DNA of 64,000 bases from Escherichia coli. Lineage in GTDB: Bacteria; Pseudomonadota; Gammaproteobacteria; Enterobacterales; Enterobacteriaceae. The DNA is taken from NCBI RefSeq assembly GCF_024223415.1, contig NZ_CP100500.1. The stretch is one strand, 5' to 3'. Positions 6,415 through 10,522 of the stretch are shown piece after piece (the stretch's first letter is position 1; every line of letters begins with the position of its first letter). Both the position numbers and the translations under genes were made by a program. The notes under the pieces are model-generated. The model ran no database searches, was not told the DNA's origin, and was given only the letters and a program-made list of their open reading frames with translations.

Positions 6415-7212
6415 ATGCTGGCAAAAGATAGGACTAACCTAAAGATTGAAGAAATACGGATGCATAAACATCATGAGATTCACAGGGTTAAGCCTCTTAT
6501 GCCAGCTTTATGTCGTATCCGTCAGGGAAAAAAAATTATCAATTGGGAGACGCATAGTCTAACTGTTGATAATAATCAGATAATATTATTTCCCTGTGGA
6601 TATGAATTTTATATTGCGAATTACCCAGAAGCAGGTCTTTATCTTGCAGAAATGCTTTATTATCCCATTGATCTAATTGAAAAGTTCCAAAATCTTTATG
6701 CGATAACCGATCAAATTCGTAACACGACAGGTTTCTGCTTACCTCAGAATCCCGAGTTAATATATTGTTGGGAGCAACTAAAAACATCTATTTCCCGAGG
6801 CTTCTCAACGCAAATTCAGGAACACTTAGCAATGGGCGTTCTACTTTCATTAGGAGCACATCATGTTAATTGTTTACTTTTATCAGATAGTAAACAATCA
6901 TTAATAAGTCGTTGTTATAACCTAATGCTATCCGAACCTGGAACAAAATGGACAGCAAACAAGGTAGCGAGATATCTCTACATTTCTGTTTCCACATTGC
7001 ATCGCCGTCTGGCAAGCGAGGGAGTAAGTTTTCAAAGTATATTGGACGACGTGAGGTTAAATAATGCGTTGTCTGCTATACAAACGACAGTAAAACCCAT
7101 CAGCGAGATTGCCAGGGAAAATGGTTACAAGTGTCCTTCTCGTTTTACTGAAAGGTTCCATAATCGTTTTAAGATAACACCAAGAGAGCTAAGAAAAGCG
7201 TCCAGAGAGTAA
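6415..7212 (+). CDS. ybcM: AraC/XylS-family transcriptional regulator (265 aa), YbcM-like
   Basis: ORF track; C-terminal AraC-type HTH region ([27 protein letters not shown]...[19 protein letters not shown]). Confidence 0.7.
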
Positions 7213-7503
7213 AAGTATTTTATGAAGGAGCAACAGCATAGATTTTTATTTTGGAAAATAAATACGGCATACTCAACCTATTGGAGCCTGAACAATCCGG
7301 TGACTTCTGCGCTAATCGGGGACGTTTATAAGCACATATAATTGATACTATCTTCCTCCATCACAATTTCAGAAATGCACGTGTGATTTTTTTGCATCCG
7401 GCGTTTGGACTATGTGGAGTTCAAGAGTGGGAAAGTTACAAGAGGTTGAGGGGATAATTAAAGGGATGCTTATGACATTAGATATCCGGATAGGTACGGA
7501 TAT

Positions 7504-7543
7504 CGTTGTTATTAAATCTAGTTCGTTGTTATTAAATCTAGTT
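7504..7543. repeat. Perfect tandem direct repeat, 2 x 20 bp (cgttgttattaaatctagtt)
   Basis: Read directly in sequence within the AT-rich non-coding stretch. Confidence 0.85.
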
Positions 7544-8175
7544 TATACGTTAAGATGCAGCTACAGCAGAAATTGCCACTGTTAATTTTTTCATCGTGAG
7601 CCTTTTATTTGAACTATTATTTAAAAATGATGTCACTGCACTACAAATATTCATCCAATCAATGAGATTATTTCAAGATGTAAGTTTTAGTTTCTCATTT
7701 AAATTGTGAAGTAGATCCCTATCTTTATCTGAACTGTTTCTATTGCACACAATGCATGACTATTTTGTGAACGAATATAAATTTGGTAGTTAAATTATAT
7801 TAAAGGTTGTTATTTATGATTGACTCATAATTTATTTATTTAATTTAAATAGCCTAGAAATAACCATGGAAATTATTTGCATGATGTTTGTTTAGATTTA
7901 TTAATGTAATTGAGGTGGTTTTATTTAATACGCAATATAGCGCCGCTTGATATTAGTTCTATTTTTTTTGCGTAAGATAGATGAGACAAACTGAGACGCA
8001 TAATGGTTTGCAAGGCTCTAATACTTTGATGTTGAGGATGTGATGGGGCATGTACGGGGCATAGTACAATGATGTCCATGCTGGTGTAGATAATCTCCAG
8101 GCTTATCCGGTGCGCCGTAAAACCCCGTCCTTCAGGGCAGGGATATAAGGCGTGGTTTTCCACCTGACCAGGTGT

Positions 8176-8595
8176 TTGCTGTTGTTCAATGTATTGGCGG
8201 ATGACGGATATTGGCGCACCTCCGCAGCTACTGGCAAAATAGCCAGGACTCCACAAAACGCCTTTGTAGTAATACCTGACTGCAATATCTGGTCGATCTC
8301 GTCGCAGTCACCTACCCGATACGCCTTTGAGGCTGTTTACCAGACTGGATATCGCCAGTTTGGGAGGATAGTTAATTAACAAATGGACGTGATCTGGTTC
8401 GCCATCCATTTCAACCAGTTCAGCTTCAAAATCAGCACATACATTTGAAAAGTAAGTGCGTAGTTTTTCTGTCGCGTCATGGTCAAAAATCTGACGTCGG
8501 TATCTGGTGACAAAGACCAGGTGAACATGCATCAGGAAAACACAATGCCTTCCACGCCGGATATCGGTTTCTTTTTTCACAGACCAAAGTATCAT
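8176..8595 (-). pseudogene. tnpA: IS200/IS605 Y1 transposase TnpA, disrupted (split over two frames)
   Basis: ORF 8308..8595 carries the HVHLL HuH motif; conserved WSPGYFASSCGGAPISVIRQYIEQQ is in another frame (ORF 7921..8256) and reads through without a nearby stop. Confidence 0.7.
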
Positions 8596-8602
8596 TTGGC
8601 CT

Positions 8603-9811
8603 GTGAAACGACTACAAGCATTTAAATTCCAGTTAAGACCCGGTGGTCAACAGGAGCGTGAAATGAGGCGCTTCGCAGGCGCATGTCGTTTCGTTTTCAA
8701 TCGTGCTCTGGCACGTCAGAATGAGAATCATGAGGTCGGTAATAAATACATCCCTTACGGGAAAATGGCTTCCTGGCTGGTTGAGTGGAAAAATGCCACT
8801 GAAACGCAATGGCTTAAAGATGCCCCGTCACAGCCATTGCAACAGTCACTGAAAGACCTTGAGCGGGCTTACAAAAACTTCTTCCAGAATCGGGCTGCTT
8901 TTCCCCGATTCAAAAAGCGGGGACAGAATGATGTATTCCGCTACCCGCAGGGCGTTAAGCTCGATCAGGAAAACAGCCGTATTTTTCTGCCGAAACTGGG
9001 CTGGATGCGCTACCGGAACAGCCGTCAGGTCACGGGTGTTGTGAAAAATGTCACTGTCAGCCAGTCCTGCGGTAAGTGGTACATCAGTATTCAGACAGAA
9101 AGTGAAGTATCAACTCCGGTTCACCCTTCAGCATCAATGGTCGGGCTGGATGCTGGCGTGGCTAAACTCGCCACGCTGTCAGATGGCACAGTCTTTGAGC
9201 CTGTAAACAGTTTTCAGAAAAACCAGAAGAAGCTGGCGAGACTTCAGCGACAGTTAAGCCGCAAGGTCAAATTCAGCAACAACTGGCAGAAGCAGAAACG
9301 CAAAATACAGCGACTGCATTCCTGTATCGCAAATATCCGCAGGGACTACCTTCACAAAGTCACAACGACCGTCAGCAAAAACCACGCAATGATAGTCATT
9401 GAGGATTTGAAGGTCAGCAACATGTCAAAGTCAGCAGCGGGTACGGTCAGCCAGCCGGGGCGCAATGTCCGGGCAAAATCAGGTTTAAACCGTTCGATAC
9501 TGGATCAGGGCTGGTATGAAATGCGCCGCCAGCTTGAGTACAAGCAGCTCTGGCGTGGCGGTCAGGTGCTTGCTGTTCCGCCAGCGTACACAAGCCAGCG
9601 TTGCGCGTGCTGTGGTCATACAGAGAAAGAAAACCGCCTGTCACAAAGTAAATTCAGATGCCAGGTATGTGGATATACAGCGAACGCCGATGTAAATGGC
9701 GCTCGTAACATTTTAGCGGCGGGGCACGCCGTTCTTGCCTGTGGAGAGATGGTGCAGTCAGGCCGCCCGTTGAAGCAGGAACCCACCGAAATGATTCAGG
9801 CGACAGCCTGA
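8603..9811 (+). CDS. tnpB: TnpB (IS605 OrfB family) RuvC-like RNA-guided endonuclease (402 aa), apparently intact
   Basis: ORF track; N-terminal [13 protein letters not shown]; Ruv[19 protein letters not shown], RuvC-II IEDLKV, zinc finger CACCGH...CQVCG, Ruv[13 protein letters not shown]. Confidence 0.9.
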
Positions 9812-9850
9812 ACGTAGCAGGGATCCTCGTCCTTCAGGGCGTGGAGGATG

Positions 9851-10522
9851 TCAACAAACAGGTTGAATTAACTCCGCGCCCTGGTTTTTGACATTACCTA
9901 CCGCGCGCGATACCGGGTGCCAGGTGAACTGGTTTGCTGGCACACAGCCGTTGGTAGCAATTTCTGATGCTTCTTTACCGCCAATCTCTTGCCGCATCCA
10001 TTCCTGTGCAGCTTCTGGCGACAGAACCAGCGGGCGGCGGTCATGAATATCTACCAGACCCTGGTCTGCTGCTGCAGTGACAATTAAAAATCCTTCGGCT
10101 TCGTCACCGCGCTCAAACGGTGTGCTACCTATCGCGGCCATAAAAACAGGTTGTCCATCAGCGCGATAGATAAAATAAGGCTGTTTTTTGTCGCCTTCTT
10201 TTTTCCACTCAAACCAGCCATCGGCAAAACAGATTGCCCGACCATGTTGCCAGAGCGGTTTAAACATACGACTGGTGGCCGCAGTTTCTACGCGGGCGTT
10301 AATCAGCGGCGGTTTATCCCACCATCCGGGAGCATATCCCCAGAAAACCGGATCCAGATGAAGGTGTTCATCACGTTCACTGAGCAGAAGAACTTTGGTT
10401 CCCGGCGCGACGTTGTATCTGCCAATGGGTTCGGGATCGTAGGGAATATCGCGTTCAATATCTTCCGCGAGAAGCGCAAGGTAATCTTCACGCGTTTGGG
10501 ATTGGGCAAAGCGTCCACACAT
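9851..10522 (-). CDS. yedK: SOS-response-associated peptidase (SRAP) YedK, abasic-site processing protein
   Basis: ORF track; MCGRFAQSQTREDYLALL with the catalytic Cys2 start typical of SRAP proteins. Confidence 0.9.
   Translation of the reverse strand: MCGRFAQSQTREDYLALLAEDIERDIPYDPEPIGRYNVAPGTKVLLLSERDEHLHLDPVFWGYAPGWWDKPPLINARVETAATSRMFKPLWQHGRAICFADGWFEWKKEGDKKQPYFIYRADGQPVFMAAIGSTPFERGDEAEGFLIVTAAADQGLVDIHDRRPLVLSPEAAQEWMRQEIGGKEASEIATNGCVPANQFTWHPVSRAVGNVKNQGAELIQPVC

Follow-up and report, generated by a model that had tools for sequence, protein, structure and literature searches.

What remains of a mobile element whose transposase gene has died, and what could an RNA-guided nuclease gene that outlives it still do at the site where both are stranded? 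This question is posed by a 64,000-nucleotide stretch of Escherichia coli DNA (RefSeq assembly GCF_024223415.1, contig NZ_CP100500.1), hereafter called the window, in which an insertion sequence (IS) with the genes tnpA and tnpB interrupts the stop codon of yedK. By sequence comparison, positions 8107-9854 are an ordinary copy of IS609, a known E. coli insertion sequence that RefSeq already annotates likewise in every carrier strain examined. We consider it likely that this copy is non-autonomous, with a dead tnpA and with a tnpB gene and predicted guide-RNA scaffold that are intact in sequence, and that it carries an idle module of the kind such elements use for retention or homing.

An IS609 copy within the yedK stop codon

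The features that define the element and its site are as follows.

8107-9854 (1748 bp, no strand assigned): IS609 copy, IS200/IS605 family, delimited by copies at other loci, the empty site of NU14 and the right ends of relatives
8103-8106, plus strand: target tetranucleotide TTAT, which adjoins the left end and is the predicted TAM, a motif that TnpB requires next to its target
9851-9854, plus strand: TCAA, the right-end cleavage motif and final four bases of the element; relatives end in GTCAA
9851-10522, minus strand: yedK, an SOS-response-associated peptidase gene of 223 codons, from the open reading frame (ORF) list and comparison with NU14
8123-8142, plus strand: left-end subterminal hairpin, CCCCGTCC-TTCA-GGGCAGGG, recognized as a direct repeat shared with the right-end hairpin
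9824-9845, plus strand: right-end subterminal hairpin, also the final stem of the RNA scaffold described below, recognized by the direct repeat and by covariation in relatives

Several comparisons fix the boundaries to the base. First, copies at ydcO of K-12, in a TetR-family gene of O157:H7, in yfeD, and in genes for DUF3251 and DUF1869 proteins align to positions 8103-9854/9856 with 98-99% identity, and the alignment of copies from more than six other E. coli loci begins at the TTAT of 8103-8106. Second, the corresponding empty site in NU14 reads ...GGCTTAT/CAAACAGG... or, in wider context, ...CTCCAGGCTTAT/CAAACAGGTTGAATTAACTCC..., where the slash marks the point of insertion. Third, the right ends of 39 related elements, from other Enterobacterales and beyond, all stop at GAGGATGTCAA and then diverge right after GTCAA. 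At the other end, TTAT precedes nine of the 11 left ends compared (those of the window, O157 and K-12 copies and of six relatives), and TTAC precedes the remaining two, both from relatives. The element has no terminal inverted repeats, and comparison of the empty and occupied sites shows no target-site duplication. Insertion 3′ of TTAT, a TCAA end and the lack of a duplication are hallmarks of IS200/IS605 transposition, and in a survey of E. coli TnpB elements TTAT was among the most frequent left cleavage motifs and TCAA the commonest right-end motif (PMC9956272).

A first-pass annotation of the window, made from the letters alone, had recognized an IS200/IS605 element with divergent tnpA and tnpB genes. 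This identification holds, given the NCBIfam matches reported below and the RefSeq name of an intact relative, but the proposed span of 8040-9850 gives way to 8107-9854, with TTAT at 8103-8106. We take the name from the RefSeq product ‘IS200/IS605-like element IS609 family transposase’ on the 98%-identical O157 copy. Positions 7900-9900 are 99.9% identical to strain CFSAN061772, for which RefSeq lists, in order, ybcM, a tnpA pseudogene (‘internal stop’), an ‘RNA-guided endonuclease InsQ/TnpB family protein’, yedK, yedF and yedE. No second IS609 copy was found within the window.

The element splits the yedK stop codon, separating its G from its A, such that GTT TGA TAA at the empty site has become GTT TGT TGA. 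YedK thereby gains a C-terminal cysteine (223 amino acids, versus 222 in NU14), and its stop codon (9851-9853) is now the complement of the right-end TCAA.

Both end hairpins share the sequence CC(C/T)CGTCC-TTCA-GGGC... (8123-8142 on the left, 9825-9844 on the right), and each is imperfect in the window copy. The left-end hairpin has one C.A mismatch (8126/8139), whereas the O157 copy, with GGGCGGGG, pairs fully. The right-end hairpin has a T.T mismatch (9827/9842) that is present in all sampled yedK-locus copies, at a pair that is matched in O157 and K-12. One mismatch per hairpin probably weakens recognition by TnpA, even if that protein were supplied in trans.

A dead transposase gene beside an intact tnpB gene

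The two genes and their diagnostic residues are located as follows.

8164-8595, minus strand: tnpA pseudogene, Y1/HUH transposase, identified by NCBIfam transpos_IS200
8308-8310, minus strand: in-frame TGA at codon 96 that truncates TnpA, seen by single-frame translation; O157 has TTA (Leu)
8164-8166, minus strand: lost stop codon of tnpA, CAG here and TAG in the intact O157 copy
8603-9811, plus strand: tnpB, 402 codons, intact, GTG start, from the ORF list, NCBIfam and alignment to ISDra2
9149-9151, 9401-9403 and 9689-9691, plus strand: codons for the RuvC residues D183, E267 and D363 of TnpB, placed by alignment to ISDra2
Residues C334, C337, C353 and C356 of TnpB: zinc-finger cysteines of a CxxC...CxxC pattern, all present

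The transposase gene matches the transpos_IS200 model with 144.8 bits (cutoff 55), and its product is 97.9% identical to the intact 143-residue TnpA of O157. Two minus-strand ORFs, at 8308-8595 (95 amino acids) and 7921-8256 (111 amino acids), share a common frame and together resemble a Y1 transposase. When translated in that one frame from 8595 to 7921, they yield the whole of TnpA with a single internal stop. A frameshift, implied by the earlier description of tnpA as split across two frames, is therefore rejected in favor of the in-frame TGA. The same description had tnpA lacking a proper stop, and this is correct: CAG has replaced TAG, and the frame continues through the left end into the flank, as far as 7921. 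The catalytic tyrosine, which we take by homology to IS608 TnpA to be that of ...IRQYIEQQ, lies downstream of the nonsense codon. With both a nonsense codon and a lost stop codon, tnpA is by every sequence indication dead.

These lesions recur elsewhere. The TGA is found in six of ten sampled yedK-locus copies and in the K-12 ydcO copy, and the stop codon is lost in nine of the ten. Among the same ten, a 5-bp deletion (8480-8484) occurs in two lineages and loss of the ATG in one. Inactivation of tnpA has thus taken at least three different forms at this locus, and RefSeq calls the gene a pseudogene in every yedK-locus strain examined.

With tnpA dead and a mismatch in each end hairpin, this IS609 copy is presumably unable to excise or move alone. 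The first-pass verdict of ‘probably immobile’ is reasonable for autonomous movement, but an intact TnpA from another copy could in principle mobilize the element.

The tnpB gene is in a different state. Its product matches NCBIfam guided_TnpB with 387.8 bits (cutoff 100) and aligns over residues 3-376 with the ISDra2 TnpB structures (8EXA, 8BF8 and 8H1J; E = 6e-55). The predicted 402-residue protein with RuvC motifs and a zinc finger is confirmed in each particular, as D183, E267 and D363 align with D191, E278 and D361 of ISDra2, no member of the catalytic D/E/D triad has been lost and all four cysteines are kept. The gene is thus intact in sequence, and its product is possibly still nuclease-competent. 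The exact protein (WP_254539413.1) is a rare allele within a 90%-identity cluster of 21,309 members.

Patterns of substitution suggest that tnpB has been under moderate purifying selection. Its pairwise ratio of nonsynonymous to synonymous substitution rates (dN/dS) is 0.2-0.3 against the O157 and K-12 copies. Seven of the ten sampled yedK-locus copies keep the full ORF, and among these seven intact copies we counted 19 nonsynonymous variants to 17 synonymous ones, where neutrality would predict a ratio of 3.5:1 (binomial p = 8e-4), an approximately 3-fold under-representation of nonsynonymous variants.

The literature offers little on this protein. We found no publication on the yedK-locus insertion, on a guide RNA of insQ/ydcO, or on the activity of E. 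coli IS609 TnpB. One published study names an ‘IS609’ TnpB as one of nine candidates that were purified.

The divergent start region is native to IS609

The annotated starts of tnpA (8595) and tnpB (8603) are separated by only 7 nucleotides. The first-pass annotation counted 8 bp and suspected rearranged promoters, an idea that we reject because the layout, gap included, is identical in the intact O157 copy and in the K-12 copy. The two starts lie within about 25 nucleotides of each other in the relatives examined, and the compact divergent layout is, on this comparison, a trait of the IS609 family.

In relatives, a −10-like hexamer stands exactly 7 nucleotides upstream of the tnpB start (TATAAT in most, TGTAAT in one), without a Shine-Dalgarno sequence, and the spacer varies. 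This arrangement hints that tnpB mRNA may be leaderless. Distant relatives start tnpB with ATG, and their TnpA apparently begins at MTKETD. The hexamer in the window is TATCAT (8590-8595), and the annotated tnpA ATG is read from its complement. The GTG start of E. coli IS609 should translate poorly without a leader. A 14-nucleotide palindrome, TTTCACAGACCAAA / TTTGGCCTGTGAAA (8575-8608, 13/14 complementary), covers both start codons. The intact O157 copy has this palindrome too; in K-12 it is weaker, and relatives conserve it poorly.

A predicted structured RNA overlaps the 3′ end of tnpB

If TnpB is to act as an RNA-guided nuclease, the element should also encode its guide RNA. The first-pass annotation placed this RNA at about 9700-9850, close to the interval that emerges from comparative analysis.

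9708-9854, plus strand: predicted guide-RNA scaffold (omega RNA, or reRNA) of about 147 nucleotides, supported by covariation and extending over the 3′ end of tnpB and the right end

Its helices are these.

9708-9713 with 9846-9851: long-range helix
Hairpin within the AAGHAV codons of tnpB
RAGATH-18-like stem, CCUGU/GCAGG, around an inner stem
Hairpin directly past the tnpB stop codon
Right-end hairpin (helix 7), with compensatory changes in relatives

This model was derived from an alignment of the final 200 nucleotides of the 39 related elements, using RNAalifold with one hairpin added by eye. The nested consensus comprises 38 pairs, and 94.5% of its cells are paired across the 39 elements. 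Compensatory changes are evident in 18 pairs, compared with 9.0 +/- 1.6 in shuffled alignments and no more than 9 in slid controls, and all five measures that we scored exceed those of all 500 shuffles and all slid controls. In one instance the covariation is synonymous and falls on third codon positions (columns 85:91; GCG/CAC to GCA/CAT), with an A-U pair in 23 sequences and a G-C pair in 15. Furthermore, several conserved pairs are G-U, meaning that the structure works only on the tnpB-sense strand. The right-end hairpin is also needed by TnpA as single-stranded DNA, which leaves the upstream helices as the only evidence specific to an RNA. Taken together, these features of the modeled structure point to a conserved structured RNA that covers the 3′ end of tnpB together with the right end, and that we predict to be the guide-RNA scaffold.

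Folding of the window sequence by itself, over 9640-9875 (z = −2.8) or 9704-9854 (z = −2.2), recovers both 3′ hairpins, and the 5′ half conflicts with the comparative structure, which we prefer. A covariance-model search, which the first-pass annotation had proposed as a check, gave no Rfam match above threshold and two weak resemblances: RAGATH-18 (RF03064) at 9738-9781, with 25.4 bits against a gathering threshold of 44.9, and HgcC (RF00062) at 9748-9867, with 19.3 bits against 50. Because both scores fall far below the gathering thresholds, membership in either family is rejected.

The predicted guide matches the empty yedK site

According to the published mechanism, the guide is supplied by the DNA that follows the right end, and the left-end target motif serves as the TAM. 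Excision leaves a scarless donor joint, which TnpB cleaves, and recombination then restores the element (PMC10055086). The right-end boundary then predicts the guide.

9855-9874, plus strand: predicted guide of about 16-20 nucleotides, CAAACAGGTTGAATTAACTC, from the right-end boundary and the published TnpB mechanism; antisense to the final yedK codons

A guide that starts at 9855, with TTAT as its TAM, would fit both the divergence of right ends after GTCAA and the left flank. TTAT followed by CAAACAGGTTGAATTAAC is the exact sequence of the NU14 empty site. The sole near match to this combined sequence within the window is the native junction, which has TCAA for TTAT, so that two positions differ. 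The earlier expectation that the guide would run antisense into the 3′ end of yedK holds in essence, with 9855 as its predicted first nucleotide.

We therefore propose, by analogy with characterized systems, how this locus would operate. IS609 inserted after the top-strand TTAT, inside the yedK stop codon. The tnpB mRNA would be transcribed and processed to a guide RNA whose 3′ guide is the flank CAAACAGGTTGAATTAAC..., and the TnpB-RNA complex would cut TTAT plus the guide sequence, which is the empty yedK site, or donor joint. The occupied site would be spared, having TCAA in place of TTAT. Such an arrangement would be the standard selfish retention and homing module of IS200/IS605 elements. 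Here, with no TnpA to make donor joints, the module would now be largely idle, and it appears to be eroding in many lineages. Expression of tnpB, nuclease activity and TAM specificity are all extended to this copy by analogy.

The junction also has a structural peculiarity. An inverted repeat, ATGTCAACAAACAGG / CCTGGTTTTTGACAT (9848-9894, 87% complementary, 17-nucleotide loop), pairs the right-end tip and predicted guide with inner yedK codons. A longer read-through transcript could hide the guide through this repeat. On the opposite strand, the same repeat forms a hairpin at the 3′ end of the yedK mRNA.

Persistence and decay among E. coli genomes

We surveyed 5,426 complete E. coli genomes with junction-spanning queries. 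The yedK-locus insertion is present in 1,095 by its left junction and in 1,094 by its right junction (deletion-tolerant query), about one fifth of the genomes. A 2-kb query returned 4,310 genomes. Copies of IS609 elsewhere in a genome suffice to cover more than 80% of such a query, and we therefore rejected this number as a census of the locus. The shared site in about one fifth of genomes is most simply explained by vertical descent.

Some carriers have a 100-bp deletion (9741-9840) whose ends fall at GTGGAG direct repeats (9741-9746 and 9841-9846); most of the scaffold is gone from these copies, as is the right-end hairpin. Allowing for such losses, roughly 40% or more of carriers appear to have lost the TnpB-guide module. 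Copies at the yedK locus are also mosaics. Three have a tract of K-12 ydcO type, for example at 8612-8827, and one has O157-type variants at 8998, 9019 and 9634. These mosaic alleles imply that IS609 copies at different loci have exchanged sequence by recombination or gene conversion.

Alternative explanations

Our favored reading, an idle but sequence-intact retention module in a non-autonomous IS609 copy, has to contend with several observations that weigh against it. At the level of expression, the GTG start of tnpB has no Shine-Dalgarno sequence, and the plus strand from 7900 to 10100 yielded no sigma-70-like promoter. The scan for promoters and terminators gave nothing above chance on the plus strand and is uninformative on the expression of tnpB or the guide RNA. 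At the level of sequence, the sole private change in TnpB, A341E, falls in the zinc-finger loop, and the T.T mismatch of the final stem is the sole pair identified as broken among the 38 of the scaffold. The dN/dS signal, moreover, may reflect the whole IS609 family instead of the yedK locus, because the yedK-locus alleles are mosaics of variants from other loci. At the level of the population, the right junction is contiguous in only 667 of the approximately 1,094 carriers. The other ~427 (39%) are estimated to have the 100-bp deletion, a figure that is a difference of two counts extrapolated from two sampled genomes. Both of those sampled deletion copies also carry tnpB Q69*, and in O111 strains IS1203 sits inside tnpB. 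Given the scaffold deletion, Q69* and the IS1203 insertion among carriers, selection to retain the module at this locus would be weak or absent.

The same observations feed the strongest rival, that the copy is a completely inert fossil whose ORF and scaffold are intact only through the short time elapsed, with TnpB not made or inactive. We regard this as a possible reading, although a somewhat doubtful one. Besides the missing promoter-like site and ribosome-binding site, the private A341E and the losses among carriers, the mismatches in both end hairpins speak for it, as does the published finding that HpyTnpB of IS608 was inactive in an assay (PMC10055086), such that intact sequence is no guarantee of activity. 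Set against it are the retention of every catalytic and zinc-binding residue, the deficit of nonsynonymous tnpB variants, the single broken pair in the scaffold and the survival of the full tnpB ORF in seven of ten copies while tnpA died in at least three ways.

Another idea is that the stranded TnpB-guide pair works as an allele drive on the chromosome, directed at the empty yedK site. This is mechanistically plausible and, we think, unlikely. The predicted guide plus TTAT is an exact match to the uninterrupted yedK 3′ end of the roughly 80% of E. coli genomes that are without the insertion. If a drive operated, an empty allele that arrived on incoming DNA, or one created when the IS was precisely lost, would be cleaved, and the IS-bearing copy would serve as template for its repair. 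The insertion would thereby be helped to persist and to spread among lineages. Drive of this kind could also explain the mosaic recombinant alleles at the locus.

The first-pass annotation had further suggested co-option. In its broadest form, this would have the TnpB-guide pair or an antisense read-through transcript serve the host, through yedK regulation, or drive the allele by cutting incoming empty-allele DNA. The predicted guide is indeed antisense to the 3′ end of yedK without a mismatch and corresponds to the empty allele of genomes such as NU14, tnpB does outlast tnpA at this locus, and TnpB drives IS-bearing plasmids to fixation and acts as a gene drive in plasmids (PMC11870625). We nevertheless judge co-option very improbable, and the analysis revealed no sign of it. 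The nuclease residues are intact, unlike those of the domesticated TldR proteins (PMC10705468), and the module is often lost among carriers. The same combination of intact tnpB and dead tnpA is found at the unrelated K-12 ydcO locus, which marks it as a feature of the IS lineage rather than of yedK. The predicted guide, moreover, is simply whatever flanks the insertion.

Finally, it is hardly conceivable that tnpA is truly intact and its lesions sequencing or assembly errors, for which nothing speaks other than that each is a single base change, given that the TGA and the lost stop recur in independently sequenced copies, that other lineages have the 5-bp deletion or the lost ATG instead and that RefSeq flags the pseudogene in every strain examined at this locus.

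That leaves the idle retention and homing module as the reading we prefer. IS609, the RNA-guided nuclease activity of TnpB and the existence of tnpB copies that outlive tnpA were already established. This analysis adds base-exact IS609 ends, a predicted TTAT TAM, a covariation-supported scaffold model and a yedK stop codon supplied by the IS. It also offers a population snapshot of a nuclease module that is eroding, and not being kept, at one fixed site in the chromosome, which counts as a modest piece of natural evidence against the routine co-option of stranded TnpBs.

Genes flanking the insertion

The genes emrE, ybcL and ybcM, which we take to be DLP12 prophage genes in K-12, lie between fliE and IS609. 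In the window, ybcM is intact (265 amino acids, 6415-7212), and it is frameshifted in the 99.9%-identical CFSAN061772. Between ybcM and IS609 are about 880 bp with short ORFs only (7222-8102), where NU14 has an ompC-like porin gene.

Comparison with known systems

The closest counterparts are the IS609 of O157:H7, in its TetR-family gene, and insQ of K-12, by ydcO, which share with the window copy 98-99% nucleotide identity, the gene layout, the ends and the TTAT flank. The K-12 ydcO copy has both tnpA lesions seen here. Relative to the O157 element, whose tnpA is intact, the window copy differs in its yedK stop-codon site, its dead tnpA, one mismatch in each end hairpin and the private A341E of TnpB.

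IS608 of Helicobacter pylori has TTAC as its target and co-directional genes, whereas the window element has TTAT and divergent genes. Both have a Y1/HUH TnpA and subterminal hairpins, both insert 3′ of a tetranucleotide and duplicate no target sequence, and both end in TCAA (mechanism in PMC10055086).

Two RNA families resemble parts of the scaffold. Both ends of the RAGATH-18 consensus find a counterpart in the central stem, CCUGUGGAG...CGUUGAAGCAGGAA, with an internal part of 17 nucleotides here versus 44, and RNAs derived from RAGATH-18 are known to guide IS607 TnpBs (PMC11061315). The alignment to the HgcC model extends through the right-end hairpin and GGAGGAUGUCAAC.

TldR offers a parallel of another kind, as a tnpB homologue that persists beside a host gene without a working tnpA (PMC10705468). 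TldR is a nuclease-dead, domesticated RNA-guided transcription factor, whereas the window TnpB keeps its D/E/D residues, both element ends are present and the predicted guide is the insertion flank. TldR-like domestication is rejected on the grounds of the intact catalytic residues and the presence of left and right ends.

A further comparison is with ISDra2, whose TAM is TTGAT, unlike the TTAT predicted here. The TnpB proteins are homologous over their full length, with the D/E/D triad and zinc finger in alignment. As in ISDra2, the scaffold predicted here lies over the 3′ end of tnpB and the right end, and flanking DNA would provide the guide. For ISGst2, the described difference between the TAM, or left-flank motif, and the TEM, or right-end motif, matches that between TTAT and TCAA at yedK. 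In sequence-level tests, IS609 TnpB thus resembles the TnpB systems of ISDra2 and ISGst2.

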